From positions 92,862 through 156,861 of the forward strand of contig JAJDUH010000044.1 in assembly GCA_022826805.1 (NCBI GenBank): DNA of 64,000 nucleotides. The letters are read 5' to 3'. The notes under the pieces were generated by a model. The model saw nothing but the letters and a program-made list of their open reading frames with translations. It searched no databases and had not been told where the DNA came from. This DNA is from Candidatus Poribacteria bacterium. Its GTDB lineage: Bacteria; Poribacteria; WGA-4E; WGA-3G. Below are positions 3,789 to 55,056 of the stretch, in pieces (positions within the stretch are counted from its first letter, which is position 1; every line of letters starts with the position of its first letter). Made by a program: the position numbers and the translations under genes.

Positions 3789-4649
3789 TTGGGATTACGC
3801 GCGGAGGCAAGCGGAAAAGTGAAGAAAGACATCACTTACCTGCACACCAAAAAACGAGAGCAGCAACCGATCACCGTGTTAACCTGCTACGATTACCCGA
3901 CTGCCTGTTTGCAAAACGAGGCAGGAATCGACATTGTCTTTGTCGGGGATAGTGTCGGTACCAATGTGCTCGGCTACAAAAGCGAGGTAGAGGTAACAAT
4001 GGCAGATATGCGACACCATCTTCAAGCGGTGCGTCGCGGTGTGACAGATGCTTATCTTCTCGTCGATATGCCTTACGCTGCTGACCGAGATGTGAAGCAA
4101 GCCGTTACCAATGCCAATCTTTTTTTGGATGATGGGGCTGACGGTGTCAAATTGGAAGGTGGTATTGAAAAGGTTCCGATCGTTACTGCCCTCACCAAAG
4201 CAGGGGTAGAGATCTGCGCCCATATCGGACATAATCCGCAAATCCATGGCACTAAAGCGGCGACACACGGAAAAACATTTGCGAAAGCGAAGCGACTCAT
4301 CGAATCAGCAGTAGCACTCACAGATGCCGGTGCGAAACTCATTGTCCTCGAAAAAATCACCGAAGAGGTCAGCCAAATCATAACGGATACCCTTAATATC
4401 CCTACCATCGGTATTGGGGCGGGACGGTTCTGCGACGGACAAGTCCTCGTTATCAACGATATATTAGGGATAGGTCCTCCCTTCAAACACGCTAAACGCT
4501 ACCAAAATTACAACCATTTGACTTTTGAGGCAATCTGTAAGTATCGGGAAGAGGTAGCAAACGGCACATTCCCTACAGACGCGAATGTCTCACACATCCC
4601 GCCAGATAAACTCGTGCGAGTGCAGAAGTGGTTGGGATCAGAACGTTAA
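3789..4649 (+). CDS. panB: 3-methyl-2-oxobutanoate hydroxymethyltransferase
   Basis: The sequence is PanB-like (ITVLTCYDYPTA..., FVGDSVGTNVLGY). The track gives a TTG start. An in-frame GTG at 3819 with GGAGG 11 nt upstream is a plausible alternative start. Confidence 0.9.
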   Translation: MGLRAEASGKVKKDITYLHTKKREQQPITVLTCYDYPTACLQNEAGIDIVFVGDSVGTNVLGYKSEVEVTMADMRHHLQAVRRGVTDAYLLVDMPYAADRDVKQAVTNANLFLDDGADGVKLEGGIEKVPIVTALTKAGVEICAHIGHNPQIHGTKAATHGKTFAKAKRLIESAVALTDAGAKLIVLEKITEEVSQIITDTLNIPTIGIGAGRFCDGQVLVINDILGIGPPFKHAKRYQNYNHLTFEAICKYREEVANGTFPTDANVSHIPPDKLVRVQKWLGSER

Positions 4650-4891
4650 GGTGTTCCACATCTCACATCCGCTTTCGTAGTATAAATTGTCAGTCTGTGC
4701 CACCATCGCACAAACCCTTAGTAAACCGGGGTTCCGAATCGTTGACGATTTGTCTTTATTTTCTCCAAGTGCCTGGGGCTGTGAAACGCGTAGAAAAATC
4801 CCTTGATCTTTGAAAATTCAACCGAAAGGTGATACGAATCGTCCAAACTTTAGTTACTTCTTAGACCCAACTCACGTTAGTATAGTTGCCT

Positions 4892-7800
4892 TTATTTCTG
4901 TATGATCATCTTCCGTGTAGCCGTGAAGTCGTCTGCGGTGAGGGTGTAAAAATAGATACCACTCGCAACAGACTCACCAACTTCATTCTTTCCATCCCAA
5001 TAGACGGCACGACTCCGATGTTGATAGATACCCGCGGGTTGATGTCCTACCTCTAACGTCCGCACTAACACACCCCTCGCCGTGTAGACACGCACCGTCA
5101 CATCCGCAGATTTCGAAAGTTGATACGGTATCCACGTCTCCGGGTTGAACGGATTCGGGTAGTTGTGGAACATGATTGTCTTTTTAGGGACAAACAACGC
5201 CAGCAACTGCTCCAGTTTTGCGATACCACTCCGGAAGGTCGGGGACCCATCATCCGCAGCACGCAAGAGGTCTAAGGCATCTTGAACCGCTTTAAACGTG
5301 ACGGCTGAGGGTAACGTAAACGTCGCAGGGGCTGCGGGTTGATTTTTTTCACCGAGATGCTCGGCGACAAGTGCGACGTCCTTCGCATCTACGACACCAT
5401 CTCCATTGACATCAGAGCGTGGGTTCACTGGGGTTTTTCTATCCCTATCCGATAGCACGATGAGGAGGTCTGTGGCATCGGTTTCTCCATCTTCGTTGAC
5501 ATCCCAAGCAGGAACAGTCGGGGCAGCGTTATCAATCGTGACGGTACCGGGTGGAATAACAGTGTATTCCGTGCCGGGGGCGAACCCGAAGAACCCGCTC
5601 CAACCTCCGCTCCTTTCGTAGACAGCGACTAACAGTGTATTATACCCCTGTTTCAGACTGACCAGGAACCTATCCTGAAAATCACCGGCTCCTCGATTCA
5701 CAGGATTGTTATGAACCAATTCTCCGTTAAGCCAGATCTTAACAGCGTCGTCACTGCCGACCATCATGGTCACTTGTTGATTTTTCGGTGATTCTATGGT
5801 GAGGGCACCGTAAGCCACGTGATCGTCTATATTACCAAATCCCAAGCCGGTGTCGTTTGCCATGTCATTGAGGTTGTCGCTGCCGGTCGCCGATAACTCA
5901 CCGGCTTTCCAGACTTTATCGCCGACGGGGTTTCCTTCGGTGGTACCGTTGGTAGCGACTTTCAGTTCCGTTACTTTTCCGTTACTGGCGACTGATAGGA
6001 AATCCACACCGGAACGCGCTGCCGCCGCGCCGCCGCTATCACCTGTTGACACGATCATCCACAACCAGGGACCTGTTATTTTGAGTCCGAGTCTGCTTGG
6101 CACGCCGGGACCAGGATTCCCTTCTGTCCGAATCGTGGTTTGGAACGGTAGTTGGTCTAAAGGCGAAAAGTCGGTTATCGCGTTGTTCCGCAAGTCGAGA
6201 CGTTCCAAGTTTCTGAGGCCTGTGAGGGGTGAGACATCTGAGATAACGTTGTTTTCAAGGTATAATACTTCCAGATTTTTTAATTCTGTGAGGGGCGAGA
6301 CATCTGAGATGACGTTCGCATCCAGATTCAACGTTCTCAAATTTTTCAGAGAACGCAACGCCGAAATATCTGATATTGTGTTATTCACCAATTCCAGCCA
6401 CTCCAGTTGTGTGAATTCCTTCAAGGGAGAGAGGTCCCTGATACTACAGTTATTGAGTTCAAGCCGCCGCAGCCGCTTGATCCCCTTTAGGGACGGAATA
6501 GTCGTTACAGAAGCATCGTTCCCGAATTCTATCCACTCCAACTTCGGTAATTGTGTCAAGGACGAGAAATCCGTGATAGGTGTATTCCAAGCATCTATCC
6601 GTTCCAGACTGGTGAGACTGGCGAGGGATGACACATCGGTGACGAGGTTTTCCGAAATGCCGATCCCCTCCAATTTTACCAATCCCTTCAATGGCGACAA
6701 ATCCGTGATGACGTTCTCTTCAAGCCCCAACCAGTCCACACTGAGCAGGTTTGCGAGGGGTGAGACATCCGAGATGACGTTATCCCGCAACTTGATGTTA
6801 TTCAGTCTGATCAATCCTTGCAGCGGGGTCACGTCAGAGATAGCGTTACGGCGGAGTTCTATCCGCTCCAGGTTCGTCGCATACTCTAATCCGATTAGGT
6901 CTTGGATGCCTCTGCCATCGGCACGGAGTTGTCTCAATTGTTTCATATCTTCATCCGTAATCGGGGCATTCGCGGCTTTACCGAGTGTTTGCGCAATCGC
7001 CGCGCGGAGGTTCGTATCTGGAATATAAACGGTGCCACCCAGTAAGGGTTGGGTTACTGGATTGACGGCAATAACCGGTGCCGGTACATCTGGTGAATGC
7101 AACGCTAAAACTACATCCGAAAATTGTGAGGTCCACACGTCCCGTTTCACGTTCCCACCATTGACGAGACCCGTTAAACCGAGCCCCTGTAAACTCAACT
7201 TCTTACCGATCTCTGAAAGAAACGCCCCTGTTTCTAAACCGATCGATGCAGCGGCGTATGCAGCGTCTACAGGTCCCTGATAAGTTTCATAGAAACGATG
7301 CACAGGTTCAATGCCTCCAAACACGCCACCTGTTTTTTCTAAAGAGGCCTCGTAACGTTTCGTATCTTCATCCAAAAGACGATCCATCGTGGGTTTATCC
7401 ACATAGAGACGTAAGGTGTGTGCTTTATCAAAACTCGGATTGCGCGTCTGTTCAATAACGCCTCGTACTGCATCTTCAAACCGTTTCATCCCTTCCGTGT
7501 GGCAACCGATACACGATAAACCGTTGTGGACAGCCGGATCACTCGCCGCCGGGTTGGACACGATGTTTGTCGGTGCAACATCTATCCGATTTCCAGCACC
7601 GTCTGAGATATAGTACGCCTGTAAACCGTTGGGAAGGTTGAACACCACTTCACCGCCATCCTGTTGGAAAGACAGTGGGTGCGTGAAAATGTTCTGCGTC
7701 CCAACGCTCCCCGCAAAGTCGTAACTCTTCCAGTAGGCACCATACCGAGACGTGTGTCGTTCTACAACGCGGTTATGATTAGAAACTCCCGAATCGTTGA

Positions 7801-17918: not shown

Positions 17919-17971
17919 ATTTTTATGGAAGAAAATTTTTGGTCAATATTTTCCAACGTTTCACAAAAAAT

Positions 17972-18000
17972 TTGCAAAAAACAGAGACACGTGATATAAT
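17972..18000 (+). promoter_or_regulatory. sigma70-like promoter with extended -10, driving the cobalamin riboswitch
   Basis: The sequence is TTGCAA, a 17-nt spacer ending in TGa, then TATAAT. It lies about 20-30 nt upstream of the riboswitch. Confidence 0.65.
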
Positions 18001-18021
18001 ATATGTATTACAATCGAATAA

Positions 18022-18215
18022 GCTGAACGGTTCAGGTGCCGGAAAAGCCGGAGAATAGGGAAGCGCGGTGAGAATCCGCCACGGCCCCGCCACTGTGAAC
18101 GATCATAAATATCCACTGAAAAAACCACTGTCAATTTACTGATGGGAAGGTTCAGCGGACTTTTGTAGGTGCAAACTACGTAAAAGATCGGAAGTCAGGA
18201 GACCTGCCTGAATCG
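18022..18215 (+). promoter_or_regulatory. cobalamin (B12-element) riboswitch aptamer
   Basis: The core is AATAGGGAAGCGCGGTGAGAATCCGCCACGGCCCCGCCACTGTGA, which includes the B12 box. Also present are CCACTG...GGGAAGG and GTCAGGAGACCTGCC. P1 is TTCAGG (18031-36) paired with CCTGAA (18207-12). Confidence 0.9.
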
Positions 18216-18355
18216 CGTTTCACACATCTGCTTTCGCGGGAAAGCAGTGGAACAGCGCGCAGCAATATCCTGTTAGACTACGGATCAAATACCAGCATAA
18301 GGTATGGAATTCTCACACATCATTACAGGATAAGACTTACACAGAATGTCGCCGT

Positions 18356-18414
18356 CCCCTCTGCTTCTCGGAGATGCTTGCTACAAAAAGCCACGAAAGC
18401 AGGGGTTTTTTGTT
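18356..18414 (+). terminator. riboswitch expression-platform terminator
   Basis: CCCCT(ct)GCTT pairs with AAGCAGGGG and is followed by TTTTTTGTTT. It ends 18 nt before the ATG at 18432. Its arms are also complementary to the hairpin at 18228-18247. Confidence 0.6.
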
Positions 18415-18431
18415 TCATTACGGAGGTTTTG

Positions 18432-19775
18432 ATGAACAAAGTTTTTTTCGCCTGGCGGCATTTATTGTGTTCACCATGTCACAAACCACTCTCACTCCTA
18501 CTTACAGGTATATTACTCCTAACGCTTCTCGTTAGTCCTGCCCTTGGACAAACAGAGGTACAAGACCTGGCGGTTGTCATAAATGCCTTGACACATCCCG
18601 ACTTGGGTATCACCGCTTCACTTTCACTCATCAATCAGGTGGAACCGAATGAAAGACGGGCGGTCGACAATGAAATACTCCGCTTCGGGATTGATCCTAT
18701 ACTGCGGCGGCGCGCAATTAGCCTCTCCATTCGTGGACATCTCGCGTATGTCCCGACTTTCAACTTACCCGTCACCGGCGGCACAAGTTCCGGCGACAAC
18801 ATCTTTATCATAAATTTGGAAGACCGAGAGTTTGTCGGCGAAATCCCGATCCAAGCGGGTACAACTCCGCAGCAGATCGCTTTCGTCAACGATCAGAAAC
18901 TATACGTCACGTGTGCAGCAACACATGAAGTGCATGTCGTTGACATTCCTAACCGTAACGTAACGAAGATTCTGACCGGCTCCTTCAACAAACCGACGGG
19001 CATCACGCTACTCAACGGCAAAGCTTACGTTTCAAATCCCGCATGGGAGTGGGATCCCGCTGCTGGGAAAGTAAACTATTACGATAGCACTGTCACAGTG
19101 ATTGATACGGAAACAGATTTCGTGTTGAAATCCATACCAGTGCCAACAAACGCAAGCACAATTGTTAACGATGGCGACTCTACCGTCATTCTCAAAACAA
19201 CTGGGAATTATAATGACATCCTGGGGCATCTCATTCTGATTGATACAGCGACCGATGAGATTGTCGAAACAGTTAAACTCGATTTCACGCCTGGCTCCAT
19301 CGCCCTTAATTCACAAAAGCAGCTGTTTATGCAAGGAAGCTGGCAAAATCCAGGTTTGCTCATTTACGATGTTGCAGCACGAGACTGGATCCGTGACGAA
19401 GACGATCCGATCGCTAATTTCAGCGACGATGCAGATGCGCCTATCAGCGGTTCCTTGGCTTTCGCACCCGATGGAAATCTCTATATCGCCAAGCCCGACT
19501 GGGGCGGCAGCGGGCAGGATTTCGTGCGCGTTATGAACGTGATAGATGCATCTCTTCTGAAAACCTATCACGTTGGACCCGGCGGCTCCATTGTCGGATT
19601 TGCACAGATCATTCCGCGCCCCGAAGATGTAAACAACGATGGATTTGTCAATGAGGCGGATTTAGTAATCGCGAGCCGGTTCTTGGGGGACGAGGGTCCC
19701 GGATTAGTCGCTGATGTCAATGGAGACGAAGTAGTCAATGTTCTTGATTTAGTGCTGATAGGTCAAGGACTCTAA
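18432..19775 (+). CDS. secreted beta-propeller (YVTN/YncE-like repeats) protein with C-terminal dockerin-like repeats
   Basis: GGAGG lies 5 nt upstream of the ATG at 18432. A signal peptide is present (LLLTLLVSPALGQ). Repeated blades are seen (KLYVTCAATHEVHVVD, KAYVSN.., VTVIDTETD). The C-terminus has DVNNDGFVNEADL and DVNGDEVVNVLDL. Confidence 0.8.
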   Translation: MNKVFFAWRHLLCSPCHKPLSLLLTGILLLTLLVSPALGQTEVQDLAVVINALTHPDLGITASLSLINQVEPNERRAVDNEILRFGIDPILRRRAISLSIRGHLAYVPTFNLPVTGGTSSGDNIFIINLEDREFVGEIPIQAGTTPQQIAFVNDQKLYVTCAATHEVHVVDIPNRNVTKILTGSFNKPTGITLLNGKAYVSNPAWEWDPAAGKVNYYDSTVTVIDTETDFVLKSIPVPTNASTIVNDGDSTVILKTTGNYNDILGHLILIDTATDEIVETVKLDFTPGSIALNSQKQLFMQGSWQNPGLLIYDVAARDWIRDEDDPIANFSDDADAPISGSLAFAPDGNLYIAKPDWGGSGQDFVRVMNVIDASLLKTYHVGPGGSIVGFAQIIPRPEDVNNDGFVNEADLVIASRFLGDEGPGLVADVNGDEVVNVLDLVLIGQGL

Positions 19776-19791
19776 CAACTGAACATTCGCG

Positions 19792-19812
19792 GGCGCGGTT
19801 TACAACCGCGCC
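19792..19812 (+). terminator. GC hairpin after the propeller gene (weak terminator / GTAGG-type palindrome relative)
   Basis: GGCGCGGTT-tac-AACCGCGCC is followed by TGTATTACTTTT. The T tract is poor. Confidence 0.4.
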
Positions 19813-19871
19813 TGTATTACTTTTAACGCCAAGAAATAGGCAACGGAATCGGTGATCTCAAAGGACACTGT

Positions 19872-21821
19872 ATGAGGCATTTTCTGAACCAGACCACAAC
19901 AATAGAGAAGGTTTGCTGGTGCCTGCCACTTTTCCTTTTCCTGCTCAGTTGTACCTCAGAACCTAAAAAGGAACCGTTCTCATGGAAAGTGACGTTTTTT
20001 TCATTGGGGGCAAAGGCACAATTGGGAGCAGAAGCACCGATACAGCGTCTGAATGCCTTTAATTCCGACGGCGTGATGGTTGCCCAACTCAATTTCCCCG
20101 CGCCGCCTCGCCAGACGGAATCGCTCTATTTTGAGTGGCGCGAAGGAGAAACCTACAGGTTTGAAGCGATCTTGTCAACAGGTGATGTGGATGTTCAAAT
20201 AGTAACTGCTCCGCGGACATACACACTGGGCACTTTAGAAATTGCCATCCCTTATGGCATTGCGACGCACTCGGATCCAGGAAACGTGTCAAACAACCAA
20301 GTTGCTCTTGTCTTGCACGAAAGCGAAATGACAGCCACAGTCGTTGTTACAAACGGAAAAACACCAGCAAACTTTGAAGTTGAACTTTGTCTACCACCAG
20401 CATTAACTGTTGTTCGTTTGCCTACAGACTGGAAGGCTGAAACAACTGATACTGGCGTCTGCCTCTCTACCACTGGCAGATTTCGTGTTGCATCGGAGGT
20501 GTGGTATCATGAGTTAGTCCTGAGGACCTCCACAGCCAATGACGCCAACAGTCAAAAAATTTTGGGGATGATTCGTTTCACAACAGATACTGGACAAACG
20601 TGGGAACAGCAAGCAACAGTGCAGTTACGTGTAGCAACCGTGCCAGAGATTGCTGAACATCTCTCAATAGCATCAATCGAGATGCCCACAGACGCAACAG
20701 GTACATCAGATCGGAGACAGCGGGAAGATACCATTTATTATTCACGTCCGTTATTCGGTTGGTTTGGAACATCGCAGACGAATCCATTCGAGCCGGTAAT
20801 GTATCAGACAGTCCGCCTCCTCAATCAAAGCGAGGAAACCATTCATGTAGTCGTATCATCAATCAACAGGGATCTGAAGAGTGGTGAAGTCGTAACATTT
20901 CTTGCACCACCGGAGTCAACTAACGGAGGCACGAATCAGAGCGTCGCCTTTGCGAGTCTGCCGGGTGGCGAAGTCACTGAGATTCCTCTACCTATCTATT
21001 TTCATCCGATTTACCTAAAACAGGGTAAGCCAGAACAAGCGACTCCTGGAGAATATACACGCGATATCGCCGTGAAGGTCTGGGGAAGCGATGTAACGAT
21101 TTTACGCGAAGAACGCTCACTGCGCCTGATTGTTCCGAACCAACAGGCACTCCTTGTTAGCTTATTGGCAATCATTAGCAGTAGCATCGGATTAGCAATC
21201 GTCCTAAAGTTGCACAAGCAACTGTTCGCCAGTTTCACAACGAAGCAACTCATCGTCATCGCACTTTTTGGCACAACGGTTTTTGTGGCAGTGATGGTCC
21301 CATCAACGCTGTTCCTTAACTTAATCCGTGCTGTCCTCGGACCGATCTCTGTACTACTGACGGGTTTGATAAATGAGACGCTTTACTATGCTTTGCTGAC
21401 TGCGCTGTTAATTTACATTAGCGGCGACCCCGAAAGCACCGAGCGTTCCGATTCAAGGTCATATAGTAAAGGTAGCGGTGTCATCTTGCTCGTCTCAGCA
21501 GTGCGTTTACTTCTCAGCGGTGTGACATTCGGGCAGTTCACACCAATGGCAATTGTTTATACTGGCACCAGTGTTCTCTTGTTAGAAACTGGCTTTCTGT
21601 TCGTGCGAGGACGGAGTTTGTTTACATGGGCAGTCGTGTTAGGTATGTGCGACGCGGTCGCCGTCTACGTCGATTTTCAAATTTCCATCTTGTTCTATCG
21701 GCTTTTTTACGCCGATTGGTATATTATTCTCCGGATTCTGATAGAGGGATTCGTCTATACATTTATCGGCGTCCTGCTCGGTGCAAAATTAGGACGCGGG
21801 CTCTGGCGTGTGGCAGATTAA
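19872..21821 (+). CDS. lipoprotein-type ectodomain (about 420 aa) fused to a C-terminal 7-TM (1+6) membrane module
   Basis: A lipobox is present (LFLLSCTSE). Seven hydrophobic segments were counted in the last 226 aa (21141-21818). No family was recognised. Confidence 0.75.
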   Translation: MRHFLNQTTTIEKVCWCLPLFLFLLSCTSEPKKEPFSWKVTFFSLGAKAQLGAEAPIQRLNAFNSDGVMVAQLNFPAPPRQTESLYFEWREGETYRFEAILSTGDVDVQIVTAPRTYTLGTLEIAIPYGIATHSDPGNVSNNQVALVLHESEMTATVVVTNGKTPANFEVELCLPPALTVVRLPTDWKAETTDTGVCLSTTGRFRVASEVWYHELVLRTSTANDANSQKILGMIRFTTDTGQTWEQQATVQLRVATVPEIAEHLSIASIEMPTDATGTSDRRQREDTIYYSRPLFGWFGTSQTNPFEPVMYQTVRLLNQSEETIHVVVSSINRDLKSGEVVTFLAPPESTNGGTNQSVAFASLPGGEVTEIPLPIYFHPIYLKQGKPEQATPGEYTRDIAVKVWGSDVTILREERSLRLIVPNQQALLVSLLAIISSSIGLAIVLKLHKQLFASFTTKQLIVIALFGTTVFVAVMVPSTLFLNLIRAVLGPISVLLTGLINETLYYALLTALLIYISGDPESTERSDSRSYSKGSGVILLVSAVRLLLSGVTFGQFTPMAIVYTGTSVLLLETGFLFVRGRSLFTWAVVLGMCDAVAVYVDFQISILFYRLFYADWYIILRILIEGFVYTFIGVLLGAKLGRGLWRVAD

Positions 21822-22069
21822 ACCATTACACCCAAAACTGGCAGATTCAGTTTCCTGACCACATCGAGCCATATATAAAAACCTGTACAATCTGCAACGC
21901 AAACAGCATAGAAAATCTATAAGACAACGGGAGTTTGATAATAGACGAGGTTAGGAAACCTCGCCAGCGGTACTGGGCGTTTTCGAAGCTAAAATTAGTT
22001 GAAATTACCCATTTACACCGGCAATTTACCATAAATCAAACTCACGTTATAAGGTAAGGAAATACATCA

Positions 22070-23767
22070 ATGAAGCGAATTCAATTTTTTACTCTGCTCT
22101 GTCTGTTTATCGTGTCGTCCATCAGTATTGTGACAGCCGATATGGACATCACATGGGTACGGACAGGTGTCGTACTTGAAGTTCAATCCAAAGACGGTGT
22201 TAAAGGCGAAATCAACGTCGCGACGATGTCCAAGGGCACAACGCATCCGTTAACCGAGCCCCCCACAATCCAACGAATTGATGCAAACCGTGTTCTGCTA
22301 CAGTTCGTTTGGCAACCGAACGAGAATTACCAATTTCGCTTGCGTAATAGCGAAATAACGACGACTTCACCGCTGAAGCCGGAACCCTATCTTATCCGTA
22401 CCGTTGCGTTAGATGGACTTCTATCGTTGATGGAAAACCTACGTCAACCCGCAACACCATCAGCAGTCGCCTTAGGAATCGGAAACGTGTCTAACAGAGA
22501 AAAATTGGCAATTGCGACGAACAGTGGTCACCTTGCGATCCTGCAGCCAATTACGGGTGAAACGCTTTGGAAAACTCGCATTTCGGAAGGCTACGTGAGA
22601 CGAATGGCGTTCAGTCCTGATAATACCTTGCTCTACGTTGGGGAACAGGCAGCAGATGGATTCATTTACTGCTACGATCTCACAGGTGATACACTAACAC
22701 TCCGCTGGAAATATCGTACCGCTGACGACATTGAAACCTCCACACCAAACGACCCAGGCAGTGTCTACGCATGGGTAAGCTACCCGGGTCCGTCTTGCAT
22801 GCGAACACTGATGGACGGCGATCTTCTGGTTGCGAGTGTACATTCATGGACAGAAAACGGGACGCCACTTAAGAAATCTCAACTCTATAGACTTGATAAC
22901 GAAACAGGAAACGTTATCTGGAAATGGCCCCATGACAGCGCGATCTCAAGAATAATTCGCTGGTTTGACGTAAGTGCTGACGGAGAAACAATCGCACTTG
23001 TAACAGATGCCGGACACAATTTACAAGGAGCGACAGGTAAAAACGGTGCTGGCAACGGAAAACTTGCTCTCCTTAACGCGAAAGATGGATCAGAAAAATG
23101 GCATACCGATATTGAACCCCTAACCCCCTATTTCGCACAGGTTACGTTTTGGCGTGGGGTGAGCGTATCGCCTGATGGTAAGTTTATCAACGTCACAACG
23201 GACGACGGGCGGGCATTCATTTTCGACGCGAATAAGCCCGAACCGATATGGAGCGAAAACTTGACGACCCCATTAGAGGTGAGCGGTATCCCGATTGTTG
23301 CAACTTCAGGAACAATTGGAGCGACGGATGCCGCGGCACTCTTTGTCACTGGCGATACATATATCCCCTATCATCTCCGAAAAGGCGCGCAACGACCTTC
23401 GGCATCACACCCAAATGGGATGACGCTGTTCGCCTACTCGTGGACCGGTGAAAAAGTCTGGCAGTGGCAACTTGAGAACATGCCACAAGGCTTACGGATC
23501 GATGCGAAGGATCGCTATGCCCTGTTATCTGTTTCTAAGCGTACTCAGGATCCAAATGAGAGTCTCCACGGCGTGTCGATGTTTGACCTGACAGCAGAAG
23601 GAAGCGGTTTATCGAAATACCTATATACCTACCGCACAGAGGGGCAACTCCCTTATGATACACTCGCGATTAGTGCAGATGGTGCGCTTGTCGTTGTGGT
23701 TGAGGTGCCGACCGCGATGCCAGATGAGACGCTGCGCGGGAAGAACCGGGTGCATGTGCTGTACTGA
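22070..23767 (+). CDS. secreted PQQ/WD40-like beta-propeller protein
   Basis: A signal peptide is present. Repeated motifs are G.TLWKTRI, GNVIWKWPHD, GSEKWHTDI and GEKVWQWQL. Confidence 0.8.
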   Translation: MKRIQFFTLLCLFIVSSISIVTADMDITWVRTGVVLEVQSKDGVKGEINVATMSKGTTHPLTEPPTIQRIDANRVLLQFVWQPNENYQFRLRNSEITTTSPLKPEPYLIRTVALDGLLSLMENLRQPATPSAVALGIGNVSNREKLAIATNSGHLAILQPITGETLWKTRISEGYVRRMAFSPDNTLLYVGEQAADGFIYCYDLTGDTLTLRWKYRTADDIETSTPNDPGSVYAWVSYPGPSCMRTLMDGDLLVASVHSWTENGTPLKKSQLYRLDNETGNVIWKWPHDSAISRIIRWFDVSADGETIALVTDAGHNLQGATGKNGAGNGKLALLNAKDGSEKWHTDIEPLTPYFAQVTFWRGVSVSPDGKFINVTTDDGRAFIFDANKPEPIWSENLTTPLEVSGIPIVATSGTIGATDAAALFVTGDTYIPYHLRKGAQRPSASHPNGMTLFAYSWTGEKVWQWQLENMPQGLRIDAKDRYALLSVSKRTQDPNESLHGVSMFDLTAEGSGLSKYLYTYRTEGQLPYDTLAISADGALVVVVEVPTAMPDETLRGKNRVHVLY

Positions 23768-23891: not shown

Positions 23892-25115
23892 ATGCAAGAC
23901 TTTACAAACACAGAGTTGTTACAAATCATCGAAAACGATGAAGCTGATCGCGTTGAGTTCAAAGAGTCTTTATCTGGCAGTGCGCCAAAAGATATCCGGG
24001 AAGCAATCTGTGCTTTTGCTAATGATTTACCTAACTATGCCAAACCGGGCTTCGTTTTCGTCGGAGTAAGAAAAGATAAGACTATTGTAGGCTTTTCAGT
24101 TACAGATCAATTGCTGCGGCAATTAGCGGACATGAAAACTGATGGAAATATTGTGCCGCCACCATCACTGACAGTGGAAAAGCGTTTACTGCAAGGCAAA
24201 GAAGTGGCGGTAGTTAAAGTAGAACCATCCAATTCACCTCCGGTTCGATGCAGAGGCGCGATCCATATCCGAACTGGGCCCCGCCGAGATATCGCCACAG
24301 CACAAGATGAGAGTATTCTTAATGAAAGACGGAGATCAGGAGATTTGCCCTTTGACTTGTGTTCTATTCCAATTGCTAGTGTGTCAGATCTCAACTTAGT
24401 CCAATTTAGGTATGAGTACCTACCCCAAGCATTTTCCTCCGAGATATTAGAGGCCAATGACCGAACCTTGAATGAGCAATTAGCTGCCACAAAGATGATC
24501 ACTTCCGCCGATCAACTTACTGCCACTGTGCTCGGAATTCTCACGCTTGGAAAAAATACGCAGGATTTCCTGCCTGGTGCGTACGTACAGTTCCTCAAAA
24601 TTGATGGGAATGAACTCACCGATGACATCCTTGACAGCGAAGCAATACGTGGTTCAATCCCTGATCAGATCCGCCGTTTAGACGACAAACTGATGGCGCA
24701 TAATCGTATTGCAGTTGATATTACGTCGGGCCCTCTCGAAAAGCGAACTGCCCTCTATCCAATAGAAGCAGTGCAACAAATTACCCGAAATGCTGTTATG
24801 CACAGGACTTATGAAGCGACGAATGCACCAGTCCGTGTCCATTGGTACAACGATCGGATCGAGGTTTTAAGTCCTGGTGGTACATACGGAAGGGTAACTG
24901 TTGAAACTTTTGGGCTGTACGGAGTGACCGATTATCGCAATCCGAATTTGGCGGAGGCAATGAAAACCCTTAATTTAGTACAGCGTTTTGGGGTTGGAGT
25001 ACAGATAGCGAGAAGGTTGCTGGAAGAAACGGGACACCCAGAGCCGGAATTTAGAGAAATTGGGGGCAACGTCCTCGCTACGATAAGAATGGTGCAACAG
25101 CCTAAGGAGATATAA
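23892..25115 (+). CDS. AlbA_2 (Schlafen-like) + HATPase_c_4 putative DNA-binding ATP-binding protein (RecG-like regulator family)
   Basis: The N-terminus (E.DRVEFKESL....IREAICAFAN..G) is typical of AlbA_2. The C-terminal region (NAVMHRTY...) is typical of this family. Confidence 0.8.
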   Translation: MQDFTNTELLQIIENDEADRVEFKESLSGSAPKDIREAICAFANDLPNYAKPGFVFVGVRKDKTIVGFSVTDQLLRQLADMKTDGNIVPPPSLTVEKRLLQGKEVAVVKVEPSNSPPVRCRGAIHIRTGPRRDIATAQDESILNERRRSGDLPFDLCSIPIASVSDLNLVQFRYEYLPQAFSSEILEANDRTLNEQLAATKMITSADQLTATVLGILTLGKNTQDFLPGAYVQFLKIDGNELTDDILDSEAIRGSIPDQIRRLDDKLMAHNRIAVDITSGPLEKRTALYPIEAVQQITRNAVMHRTYEATNAPVRVHWYNDRIEVLSPGGTYGRVTVETFGLYGVTDYRNPNLAEAMKTLNLVQRFGVGVQIARRLLEETGHPEPEFREIGGNVLATIRMVQQPKEI

Positions 25116-25117
25116 CA

Positions 25118-26185
25118 ATGCCTGTTCCAGTCCTAACTTTTTTCAACAATAAAGGAGGTGTTGGCAAAACATCCCTTGTCTATCATCTGGCATGGATGCT
25201 ACACAACCTCGGTCATCGAGTGCTGGCCTGTGACCTTGATCCACAGGCAAATCTTACGGCTGCGTTTTTAGATGAGGAAGGTTTGGAAAGCCTCTGGGAC
25301 GAAAGTAATACCGCCTCGGTCCCTAGAAACACAATTTTCCAGTGTGTAAAACCGCTAATAGAAGTTGGTGATCTGCACTTGCCTCATCTTCAATCAATTT
25401 TATGGCAATTGGACTTCGGACTGAGTGATCTAAAATTGATTCCAGGCGACTTAGCGCTAGCAGAATTTGAGGACACCCTATCTGCTGAATGGCCAAATGC
25501 TATGGGATCCACCAGTCTTCATAGATCCTTTAGAATACTAACGGCGTTTTCGACTATTATGCAGCAGAGTGCTACGGAAATGAACGCCTCAATTATTTTA
25601 GCTGATGTTGGACCCAATTTGGGTGCGATCAACCGCTCCGCATTGATCGCAAGTGATTATGTTGTGGTTCCACTTGGAGCAGATCTATTTTCGCTCCGCG
25701 GGCTACGAAACCTCGGTCCAACCCTCGAACGATGGCGAGAGGATTGGCAACGCAGACGAAATAACTGGTTTGATTGGCAACACAGGCAAAATAACAAGAA
25801 TATGCCGAATTTCCCCCTTCCAGAAGGAGGCATGAAACCTATCGGGTACATAATGCAGCAACACGGCGTGCGTTTGGAACGTCCTGTTAAAGCTTACGAT
25901 AAATGGGTTAACCGAATGCCCGAAGAATACGCACGAAACCTGCGAGGAAATGAGACAGGTCCCTACGCTGCGACTCCAGAAAAGGATCCAGTAAATTCCT
26001 TAGCTATTCTTAAACACTATCGTAGTCTCATTCCTATGGCACAAGAAAAACGTAAACCCATTTTTCATCTCACCACAGCAGATGGAGCTTTTGGGAGCCA
26101 TGCAGCCGCTGCTAATATGGCGCGCCAAGATTTCAAAATTTTGGCAGAGAAAATAGAGGAAAGAACAGGTATTAAAAGGGTATAA
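25118..26185 (+). CDS. ParA/Soj-family P-loop ATPase with long Trp/Arg-rich insertion
   Basis: A deviant Walker A is present (FNNKGGVGKTS), followed by DLDPQANLT. The start lies 2 nt after the upstream stop, and its AAGGAG sits inside the upstream gene, indicating translational coupling. Confidence 0.85.
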   Translation: MPVPVLTFFNNKGGVGKTSLVYHLAWMLHNLGHRVLACDLDPQANLTAAFLDEEGLESLWDESNTASVPRNTIFQCVKPLIEVGDLHLPHLQSILWQLDFGLSDLKLIPGDLALAEFEDTLSAEWPNAMGSTSLHRSFRILTAFSTIMQQSATEMNASIILADVGPNLGAINRSALIASDYVVVPLGADLFSLRGLRNLGPTLERWREDWQRRRNNWFDWQHRQNNKNMPNFPLPEGGMKPIGYIMQQHGVRLERPVKAYDKWVNRMPEEYARNLRGNETGPYAATPEKDPVNSLAILKHYRSLIPMAQEKRKPIFHLTTADGAFGSHAAAANMARQDFKILAEKIEERTGIKRV

Positions 26186-54212: not shown

Positions 54213-54297
54213 TGGGCGAGGAGGGACTTGAACCCTCACGAGGCGTAACCCCAATAGATCCTAAGTCTATCCTGTCTACCAATTCCAGCACCCGCCC
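54213..54297 (-). tRNA. tRNA-Leu (anticodon TAG)
   Basis: I hand-folded the cloverleaf. The acceptor is GGGCGGG/CTCGCCC, the anticodon arm is ATAGA-CTTAGGA-TCTAT, a long variable arm is present, and the T-arm is GAGGG-TTCAAGT-CCCTC. Confidence 0.9.
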
Positions 54298-54328
54298 AAA
54301 TTTTGTTCCACGGACTCTCACTGCGAGA

Positions 54329-54484
54329 CCGGGGAATGCCATTAAGGCATTCATACCCGGTAAAGCCTTTATAGGCTTTATACCCGGGGAATGCTTTATA
54401 GCATTCATACCGTTGATTTTGATTCTGATTTACGCGCATTCCGCTGTTGGTTGACGCGGCAAAATTTATTTTTCCCTTACATTC
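54329..54484 (-). repeat. H-family element, copy H5 (full mosaic: AATGTAAGGG... module, leader, three hairpin modules)
   Basis: The reverse complement aligns module by module with H1 and H3. Confidence 0.8.
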
Positions 54485-54502
54485 GTCCTAAATTATAAGG
54501 AT

Positions 54503-54575
54503 TGCGCCGTGAAGGAATCGAACCTTCAACCGCCTGATTAAGAGTCAGATGCTCTGCCAATTGAGCTAACGGCGC
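54503..54575 (-). tRNA. tRNA-Lys (anticodon CTT)
   Basis: Hand-folded. The acceptor is GCGCCGT/ACGGCGC, the anticodon loop is CTCTTAA, and the T-arm is GAAGG-TTCGATT-CCTTC. Confidence 0.9.
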
Positions 54576-54664
54576 GTCTGTTGTCTGTCTTTAATACCGA
54601 GACACATTTTATACGCATCCACTCTTAACTCTGGTGCGATAGGTCCTCGGTACTCCATTAGCAA

Positions 54665-54705
54665 TGCGCCGTGAAGGAACCGAACCTTCAACCGCTATTA
54701 ATGTC
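54665..54705 (-). pseudogene. 3' half of a tRNA-Lys copy (no D-arm or 5' acceptor)
   Basis: TGCGCCGTGAAGGAACCGAACCTTCAACCGC matches the 3' 31 nt of the tRNA-Lys gene with one mismatch, and similarity decays into the anticodon loop. Confidence 0.7.
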
Positions 54706-54772
54706 CGTATTCACCTGAACGCCCCTTCCCAGTAACGGGCAGGGTGCCGGGTAGCCCCCGGATACGAATGAA

Positions 54773-54845
54773 GGTGGATGATGGGATTTGAACCCACGAC
54801 CACTTGATCCACAGTCAAGTGCTCTACCCCTGAGCTACATCCACC
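54773..54845 (-). tRNA. tRNA-His (anticodon GTG, encoded G-1)
   Basis: Hand-folded. G-1 plus GTGGATG pairs with CATCCAC, and the anticodon loop is CTGTGGA. Confidence 0.9.
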
Positions 54846-54878
54846 ACATGCTGACGCTGCCTTGAGCCGTATGAAAAG

Positions 54879-54952
<74 letters not shown>

Positions 54953-54981
54953 TTGTGTTAAAAACCTTATTCTGTTTTGAG

Positions 54982-55056
54982 TCGGGGCGAGAGGATTCGA
55001 ACCTCCGACCTTCTGCTCCCAAAGCAGACGCGCTAGCCGGGCTGCGCTACGCCCCG
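54982..55056 (-). tRNA. tRNA-Pro (anticodon TGG)
   Basis: Hand-folded. The acceptor is CGGGGCG/CGCCCCG and the anticodon arm is TCTGC-TTTGGGA-GCAGA. Confidence 0.9.

Follow-up and report, generated by a model that had tools for sequence, protein, structure and literature searches.

The inner-membrane step of vitamin B12 uptake is unsettled in many bacteria: only about one in two B12 auxotrophs is predicted to have BtuCDF, and such alternatives as BtuM and ECF-CbrT came to light only recently (PMC6072759). Which protein could take this step is the question raised by a locus of Candidatus Poribacteria bacterium (assembly GCA_022826805.1, contig JAJDUH010000044.1, positions 92,862 to 156,861 of the forward strand), a stretch of 64,000 nt that we call the window and whose first letter is position 1. 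Behind a cobalamin riboswitch, the window carries three genes in a row: g1 and g3, which encode secreted beta-propellers, and between them g2, whose product combines an ectodomain with a membrane module. We report that the g2 protein is a new, ectodomain-bearing type of energy-coupling factor (ECF) S-component, that its family is a candidate for the inner-membrane step and that g2 probably belongs to a route of B12 uptake not described before.

The g2 protein and its membrane module

The g2 gene and the parts of its product are laid out as follows:

19872 to 21821, plus strand: g2 open reading frame, 649 residues, ATG start
19872 to 19952, plus strand: signal peptide and lipobox L24-L25-S26-C27, read from the sequence
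19953 to 21140, plus strand: ectodomain of three beta-sandwich domains (AlphaFold2)
21141 to 21230, plus strand: extra helix TM0, residues 424-453, by which the chain re-enters the cytoplasm (hydropathy and two AlphaFold2 models)
21240 to 21815, plus strand: six-helix ECF S-component-like module, residues 457-648 (AlphaFold2, Foldseek)

The open reading frame is preceded by a Shine-Dalgarno-like motif (AAAGGA) that is kept in relatives and, judging by more than 350 close homologues and 340 cluster representatives with a common architecture, it is not a chance one. Its product begins with MRHFLNQTTTIEKVCWCLPLFLFLLSC27TSE, i.e. with a K/R-containing n-region, a hydrophobic stretch and then L-L-S-C: by the lipobox criterion it is a bacterial lipoprotein, for which lipidation is predicted. 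A lipobox-like motif was found in 65 of the 80 poribacterial g2 orthologues (the best 80 loci of a scan of genome contigs that also matched 238 other relatives), and also in many distant relatives. A preliminary description of the window had already recorded the 649-residue reading frame with its lipobox (as LFLLSCTSE), an ectodomain free of recognisable motifs and a layout of one plus six transmembrane helices, and all three were borne out: L-L-S-C27 is present, residues 28-423 (roughly 395 residues) lie outside the membrane on the extracytoplasmic side and give no match in Pfam or NCBIfam, and helix 424-453 is followed by the bundle 457-648, as judged from hydropathy and two AlphaFold2 models.

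By DSSP, this bundle consists of a helical stretch 457-517 followed by helices 537-553, 558-577, 583-609 and 615-648, and we read it as six helices by taking the first stretch of the model as H1 plus H2. Positive charge lies in the linker after TM0 (KLHKQLFASFTTKQ) and at the C-terminus, and therefore both ends of the module would be cytoplasmic. A six-helix core with both ends in the cytoplasm, as predicted here from AlphaFold2 and flank charge, is the topology of an S-component.

To identify the fold, the membrane module was modelled separately (AlphaFold2, 40-sequence alignment; predicted local distance difference test (pLDDT) 93.1, predicted template modelling score (pTM) 0.89) and compared with the PDB using Foldseek. 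The best match was 5EDL (E 8e-3, probability 1.00, template modelling (TM) scores 0.50/0.57, 196 columns), while all remaining matches had probabilities below 0.45 and were noise from G-protein-coupled receptors. Entry 5EDL is YkoE of the Bacillus subtilis group I thiamine/hydroxymethylpyrimidine transporter YkoEDC, in which YkoD comprises two fused ATPase domains and YkoC is the T component (PMC5037267). The comparison thus returned one credible match, to an S-component, and no unrelated family; through this moderate match to a single entry, the g2 module has the S-component fold.

Sequence searches, which covered the whole of g2, its two halves and family profiles, gave a fainter picture. 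NCBIfam yielded no match for the g2 protein, and PDB searches (phmmer, profiles A1 and A3) yielded no transporter match, the A1 profile giving just three chance-level matches (E about 1-2). The sole recurrent Pfam signal was PF09819 (the YkoE family, named ABC_cobalt), which was weak and confined to 4 of 40 relatives (best E 5e-4); the g2 protein does not reach the Pfam gathering score of this family, to which it is related at the fold level without being a member.

The residues E572, R610, W616 and G637 of the module are invariant in the family; the module also carries the motif LFYRLFYADWYI, and RxLVxIALFG, LGPF and LYRLYYADWYI are strong motifs of the membrane module across the family. All four residues are retained in 80 of 80 Poribacteria, among which mean identity reaches 85-92% in the S module against 60-70% in the ectodomain and 38% in the cytoplasmic loop 517-536; by these comparisons, the S module is under strong purifying selection. 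The loop itself, between helices 2 and 3 (21420-21479), holds a charged insert, GDPESTERSDSRSYSKGSG, of low pLDDT, which stands where most of the family has a conserved PRPG motif.

The full-length model (71-sequence alignment; pLDDT 90.1, pTM 0.80) divides the ectodomain into beta-sandwich domains at residues 38-112, 121-255 and 264-420, with P127, P272 and G277 as invariant residues. Foldseek with full-length g2 returned only generic tandem Ig/FnIII/MG-like matches (integrins, alpha-2-macroglobulin, RbmA) and nothing specific to the ectodomain.

How far this architecture extends was seen in an exhaustive HMMER search over 1.84 billion cluster representatives (clusters at 50% identity), which gave 340 relatives at E up to 1e-3 and 239 at 1e-10. 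Most are 540-710 residues long and align with the query over its full length or from the last ectodomain domain through the C-terminus. Their common plan is a signal peptide or lipobox, an ectodomain of 300-400 residues and a membrane module of about 220 residues, and the universally conserved core consists of domain 3 and the membrane module. The carriers are Poribacteria, a Planctomycetes metagenome-assembled genome (MAG), Acidaminococcaceae, another Firmicutes MAG, Candidatus Tectomicrobia, the actinomycetotal Candidatus Oleimmundimicrobium and a cultured bacterium, Desulfarculus baarsii DSM 2075 (protein ADK85884.1), which makes experiments feasible. A word-indexed homologue search with the g2 sequence or profile A1 gave near-identical poribacterial proteins only, and three proteins with the distant-only profile A2. 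The members are named 'hypothetical protein' throughout in their sources, and we found no description of the family in Pfam, NCBIfam or the open-access literature, where papers on Poribacteria with B12 or ECF, on S-components with extracytoplasmic domains, on BtuB and ECF in Negativicutes and on corrinoids, ECF and propellers leave it undescribed.

The gene neighbourhood of the family proved decisive. In a comparison set of 83 loci of distant relatives (HMM-scanned, with short flanks of 3.2 kb), an ECF ATPase (A) gene and/or a CbiQ/EcfT (T) gene adjoins the S gene in 66, and both do in 47; the loci lacking them are mostly contigs that end early. Three distant relatives show the arrangement clearly: the S gene is followed by a gene for a double ATP-binding cassette (ABC) ATPase of 536-576 residues and then by a CbiQ-family gene, all overlapping or closely spaced, and S-A-T genes frequently overlap by 4 nt. 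In NCBIfam, the adjacent ATPases exceed the thresholds of both ECF_ATPase_1 and ECF_ATPase_2, in two stretches; the T protein adjoining the S gene matches ECF_T_CbiQ only. Because of this neighbourhood and the fold match, we take the g2 module to be an S-component of the group I kind, which falls, by sequence, outside the YkoE, BtuM, CbrT and CbiM families; that g2 is an ECF S-component at all we hold to be highly probable. The likeness to ECF S-components or BtuM that had been suggested for the module was therefore retained in its first half, owing to 5EDL and the adjacent ECF genes, and replaced in its second by the group I assignment. The ancestral gene set of the family is the S-fusion, a fused EcfA-EcfA' ATPase, EcfT (CbiQ) and a secreted WD40/PQQ-type propeller.

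A gene order kept behind a cobalamin riboswitch

The surroundings of g2 in the window comprise:

17971 to 18000, plus strand: sigma-70-like promoter (TTTGCA, 18-nt spacer, TATAAT, extended -10 TG), from a consensus scan and a pattern match only
18017 to 18225, plus strand: cobalamin riboswitch aptamer (Rfam RF00174, 105.6 bits against a gathering score of 31.5, full model 1-189)
18358 to 18411, plus strand: terminator-like expression platform, stem CCUCUGCUU...AAGCAGGGG followed by U6 (RNAfold of 18340-18431 and 18226-18431)
18432 to 19775, plus strand: g1, secreted YncE/YVTN-type beta-propeller with a C-terminal type I dockerin (Pfam, NCBIfam, phmmer)
19789 to 19815, plus strand: G+C-rich hairpin in the g1-g2 gap (12 bp, 8 of them G-C, weak T tail ATTACTTTTA)
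22070 to 23767, plus strand: g3, secreted WD40/PQQ_2-type beta-propeller (Pfam PQQ_2, 43.8 bits)

The preliminary description had assigned the propeller upstream of g2 to B12-riboswitch control, and the RF00174 match substantiates this. The stem of the expression platform lies directly 5' of the g1 ribosome-binding site (GGAGG), and the platform would work by transcription attenuation; being terminator-like, it would control the whole transcript.

The g1 protein has an ordinary signal peptide and a dockerin (Dockerin_1, 38.3 bits against a cut-off of 22.9), no lipobox and no adjacent BtuB; Pfam also gives DUF5074 weakly, and NCBIfam points, again weakly, to models of YncE and other beta-propellers of the YVTN type. 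In a phmmer search of the PDB, its best match was the archaeal YVTN S-layer propeller 1L0Q (9.9e-6), followed by 8PTF/8PTD (4e-5), 8BLW_B (8e-5) and BtuG2/BtuG3 (0.05-0.07), the last three being Bacteroides BtuG structures (PMC10404256; bioRxiv 10.1101/2024.02.16.580637). Most of the propeller matches are thus BtuG1, BtuG2 and BtuG3, with E from 4e-5 to 0.07, and g1 may be regarded as a distant BtuG-like protein with predicted corrinoid binding.

Whether the riboswitch also governs g2 depends on the gap after g1, which ends at 19775. This gap had been given as 97 nt, with a hairpin at 19792-19812: its length is 96 nt, and the hairpin with its weak T tract stands, now at 19789-19815. No promoter-like site was found in the gap by consensus scan. 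The hairpin is conserved in the closest relatives only, other poribacterial loci having different palindromes or almost no gap, and it is probably a REP-like palindrome or a partial, mild attenuator; as an attenuator, it could lower the level of the transporter relative to the binding protein. We rejected a dedicated terminator as the main interpretation of 19789-19815, given the weak T tract and the relatives with other palindromes or no gap. In 20 of 86 clade loci, fewer than 40 nt separate g1 from g2 and the distance is 0 nt or -4 nt in some, too short to accommodate a terminator or a promoter, and this comparison favours the read-through co-transcription that had been put forward as possible. 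With RF00174 upstream on the same strand, no promoter-like site in between and a hairpin of weak T tract, g2 is predicted to fall within the cobalamin regulon, and g1, g2 and g3 would form one riboswitch-controlled operon.

Palindromes are found in both gaps between the three genes, GCGGGCGCGGTTTACAACCGCGCC (19789-19812) and GAGGTTAGGAAACCTCGCC (21946-21966). A palindrome from the g1-g2 gaps of other loci, GGTTAGGAAACC..., recurs in the g2-g3 gap of the window; the GAGGTTAGGAAACCTCGCC type is also present in the g1-g2 gaps of the Poribacteria loci L052 and L056, and elsewhere there are palindromes with motifs like CGCTCCTACAG. These intergenic palindromes look like REP-like mobile elements.

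The three genes are conserved as a unit. The order g1-g2-g3 is kept in all 80 poribacterial species genomes and the riboswitch lies upstream in 78 of them, the two other loci being cut off upstream. The same arrangement with the riboswitch was found at L001, at L089 and at all four non-poribacterial clade loci that have upstream DNA (L092, L093, L096, L116). The three-gene neighbourhood on which the preliminary description had built its proposal is thus syntenic in Poribacteria and in non-poribacterial metagenome loci. When the membrane modules are ordered by neighbour-joining, the g1-linked loci form a monophyletic clade, and next to it comes a small 'S-alone' group in which adjacent ECF genes are likewise missing.

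A second clade with a cobalamin riboswitch, not sister to the poribacterial one in the neighbour-joining ordering, is Negativicutes-like: one member is named Acidaminococcaceae, and many are human-gut contigs. The riboswitch was found in 9 of the 14 loci of this clade that have at least 2.5 kb upstream. At L125, L146 and six similar loci, it precedes a TonB-dependent receptor of 626-628 residues and then S-A-T-propeller, the L146 receptor (628 residues) aligning end to end with BtuB / TonB-B12 models; at L138 and L166, it lies directly before the S gene. No other riboswitch class was found in the 83 loci. At L151 (58-2692) and at L152, L161 and L168, also from the human gut, S-A-T-propeller is preceded by a TonB-dependent receptor and a single ATPase of the FecE/BtuD type, whose best models are heme and corrinoid ABC ATPases; the flank ends before the riboswitch region.

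The second propeller is also part of the family's conserved gene set. A propeller partner was found in 52 of the 83 distant loci despite their short flanks, and g3 is 32-34% identical over about 540-570 residues to propellers beside S-A-T genes (L085, from a Planctomycetes MAG, E 2.6e-95; L088, E 4.6e-79): by sequence, g3 is the orthologue of the family's own propeller partner. The g3 family profile matched only generic WD40 propellers in the PDB. By hhalign, domain 1 of g2 has a homologue in the N-terminal domain of g3 (probability 96.3, E 1.5e-9), the shared domain spanning g2 residues 20-119 (19929-20228) and g3 residues 11-106 (22100-22387). It is missing from both proteins in the Negativicutes-like clade, with L097 and L110 as exceptions elsewhere. 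We infer that the S-fusion and the propeller may meet via their shared N-domains or have a common docking partner.

Further features of these loci may be mentioned. After g3, 23892-26185 encodes a Schlafen AlbA_2/HATPase_c_4 protein (407 residues) and a ParA/AAA_31-type ATPase (355 residues), 2 nt apart, and this pair occupies the same position in other poribacterial loci (L001, L004). Five tRNA genes are clustered at 54213-55056 on the minus strand. At L001, an IS605 OrfB/Cas12f-like TnpB gene (3927-4942) is inserted between trpE-like and hisI-like genes upstream of the riboswitch operon; the window lacks this insertion.

A proposed corrinoid uptake model and its alternatives

Taken together, these results lead us to favour, with some confidence, a full corrinoid-uptake model in which the g2 S-fusion acts within a B12-sensing operon alongside a BtuG-like and a WD40 propeller. 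When corrinoid is scarce, the riboswitch would let transcription proceed; the BtuG-like g1 protein would capture corrinoid at the surface; the WD40 propeller and the g2 ectodomain would receive and position it; the g2 S module would take it across the inner membrane; and the energy would come from an ECF A/T module elsewhere in the genome, unless the S module works alone, as BtuM does. The corrinoid substrate, the hand-over steps and the energy source are the conjectural parts of the scheme. The earlier proposal that g2 could be the membrane partner of a new corrinoid acquisition system has thus gained an S-component, synteny and a riboswitch, while its corrinoid substrate keeps the status of an inference.

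The motor deserves separate consideration. By analogy with known systems, the poribacterial motor may be either encoded elsewhere in the genome or dispensable, the S module working alone like BtuM and some BioY proteins. The word 'solitary' in the preliminary description accordingly does not suit most of the family, which has a full S-A-T transporter; near the poribacterial g2, A and T genes are absent. The PRPG and GxTR motifs of the cytoplasmic loops, common to most A/T-linked members, are lost in the poribacterial clade, where a variable insert is found. We considered this loss as a marker of a lost ECF motor and rejected it, because the Negativicutes-like clade lacks the motifs and yet has A and T.

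A cysteine of TM5, Cys593 (codon 21648-21650, within G-M-C-D-A), is present in 79 of 80 poribacterial species, in 8 of 8 other clade loci and in 3 of 4 'S-alone' loci. Among the sampled loci of the clades without adjacent ECF genes, it occurs in 20 of 22, versus 1 of 72 loci of the other, A/T-linked clades, where Ala or Gly takes its place; by analogy, this distribution fits the option of an S module that works alone. An 'S-alone' form of the family gene at L098 (1399-4979; also L094 and L101) is preceded by three genes, which encode a 100-residue protein (resembling, by eye, the MTH1187/YkoF family), a single ABC ATPase of 252 residues and a membrane protein of 234 residues with three CxxCH motifs; no riboswitch was found there.

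Several observations weigh against the corrinoid model or its parts. The structural likeness of the module depends on one PDB entry and a moderate TM-score, RibU, ThiT, BioY, CbrT and BtuM being absent from its Foldseek top 50, and Pfam offers nothing for the g2 protein of the window, even at E up to 10. In the 64-kb window, tblastn found neither an ECF ATPase nor a T homologue, and no such gene lies within 6 kb of g2 in any of the 80 poribacterial loci. The similarity between g1 and BtuG is weak (E about 1e-4), an archaeal S-layer propeller being matched as well, and a stable hairpin stands between g1 and g2 in the window. Finally, the riboswitch was found in none of the 31 loci of other A/T-linked clades with at least 300 nt upstream, nor in L085, L087 or L088, and part of the family may have a substrate other than B12.

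These points give room to other explanations. Cobalamin riboswitches are known to control cobalt uptake genes (comparative genomics, PMC2667541), and the system might serve B12 synthesis by importing cobalt, nickel or a metal chelate, as a divergent relative of CbiMNQO, an ECF metal transporter type under such riboswitches; we regard this as unlikely. The T partner does match the model 'cobalt ECF transporter T component CbiQ' and the ATPases match cbiO models, but no family member matches the CbiM/NikM Pfam family. The metal ligand of CbiM and NikM is a free amino terminus, which is impossible in a g2 module fused behind TM0. Moreover, the riboswitch is shared with BtuB-like and BtuG-like genes, whose products handle corrinoids, not ions, and an ectodomain of 400 residues plus a propeller would be hard to justify for an ion. 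As to the weak Pfam match named ABC_cobalt, PF09819 is the YkoE family, which is thiamine-binding (PMC5037267). It is also improbable, in our estimation, that the riboswitch governs g1 alone, leaving g2 and g3 as a separate unit, placed beside g1 without functional significance, for an unrelated large substrate such as heme, another tetrapyrrole, a siderophore-like compound or a glycan fragment. The 12-bp G+C-rich hairpin after g1 could be taken to mark such a boundary, but its T tract is poor, other palindromes replace it in relatives and it is REP-like; the g1-g2 gap contains no promoter-like site in the window and shrinks to between -4 and 17 nt in many loci. Similarly, most clades of the family lack the riboswitch, and some of the riboswitch-less loci have TonB/ExbD or other TonB-dependent receptors that are not B12-specific, yet no poribacterial species examined departs from the riboswitch-g1-g2-g3 order, which other clade members share, and at L138 and L166 the S gene comes directly after the riboswitch.

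A different possibility, and also an unlikely one, concerns the poribacterial proteins only: after the loss of its dedicated A and T genes, g2 would no longer transport, its S-like module having become a membrane anchor or signalling stalk whose ectodomain organises a B12-capture complex, surface or periplasmic, with the two propellers. The lack of nearby A and T genes and the replacement of PRPG and GxTR by a variable insert would be in line with this, but the Negativicutes-like clade keeps A and T without these motifs, and solitary S-components such as BtuM are able to transport (PMC6072759). The S module is also the best-conserved part of the protein, well ahead of the ectodomain, which is unexpected for a mere anchor, and its four invariant residues are kept in every one of the 80 species.

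The corrinoid model, which we prefer, can be extended into a broader proposal that we advance tentatively, as possible though short of likely: the family would be a widespread, undescribed ECF importer class, made of an S-component with its own three-domain ectodomain plus a dedicated secreted propeller with the same N-terminal domain, which forms the inner-membrane leg below BtuB/BtuG without reliance on BtuCDF, and whose poribacterial clade has shed the motor to become solitary, cysteine-bearing and BtuM-like. Such a class would challenge the textbook view of ECF transporters as lacking external binding partners, and would link BtuG-like or BtuB-like surface capture to an ECF motor. The family spans sponge symbionts, Planctomycetes, Desulfarculus, Tectomicrobia, Actinomycetota and human-gut Negativicutes, and a B12-sensing scavenging operon in every poribacterial species examined bears on vitamin exchange in the sponge holobiont.

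Comparison with known systems

The closest structural relative, YkoEDC, resembles the g2 family in the six-helix S fold with long H1 and H2 helices, and in a riboswitch-controlled operon that also encodes a fused double ATPase and a CbiQ-type T component. The g2 protein has no significant sequence similarity to it, and the family adds a lipobox, three beta-sandwich ectodomains, an extra transmembrane helix and a dedicated secreted propeller gene; furthermore, the riboswitch here is of the cobalamin instead of the thiamine pyrophosphate class, and the poribacterial operon has no A/T genes.

The metal transporters CbiMNQO and NikMNQO are likewise group I ECF systems, often with a cobalamin riboswitch, and their S-component also has an extra N-terminal helix. 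In NikM-type S-components, this helix brings the number to seven and coordinates the metal (PMC5037267), whereas in the g2 family it connects to the ectodomain and is not a metal-binding N-terminus, and CbiN is missing. The g2 protein, with no Pfam CbiM match and a module whose N-terminus is fused to TM0, does not belong to the CbiM/NikM family.

CbrT, a small S-component that stands alone and draws on the shared group II EcfAA'T, is not known to have an ectodomain or a propeller partner. It did not match g2 in PDB sequence searches or in the Foldseek top 50, the common point being the ECF-type transporter, with an S-component that handles cobalamin in that case. ECF-CbrT, the ECF-type vitamin B12 importer of Lactobacillus delbrueckii, is the precedent for corrinoid transport by an ECF system (PMC5997447).

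BtuM of Thiobacillus denitrificans, a solitary S-component-like B12 transporter, is an inner-membrane protein tied to B12 uptake in Gram-negative bacteria; it was discovered because its gene is associated with btuB in genomes, and it needs no ECF module, some BioY proteins likewise working alone (PMC6072759). The poribacterial clade is like BtuM in having no adjacent ECF module and in its conserved cysteine, Cys593 paralleling the essential cobalt-ligating Cys80 of BtuM without being homologous to it: Cys80 is in loop L3 near the periplasmic surface, whereas Cys593 is in TM5. BtuM is about 22 kDa and has no ectodomain, most of the g2 family has, unlike BtuM, a dedicated ECF module, and neither PDB sequence searches nor the Foldseek top 50 revealed homology between the two.

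Lastly, g1 resembles BtuG of the Bacteroides BtuB-BtuG system (PMC10404256) in being a YncE-type propeller encoded by the first gene behind a cobalamin riboswitch. Here, by contrast, the operon has no BtuB, the propeller carries a dockerin instead of a lipid anchor and the predicted inner-membrane partner is of the ECF type rather than BtuCD.

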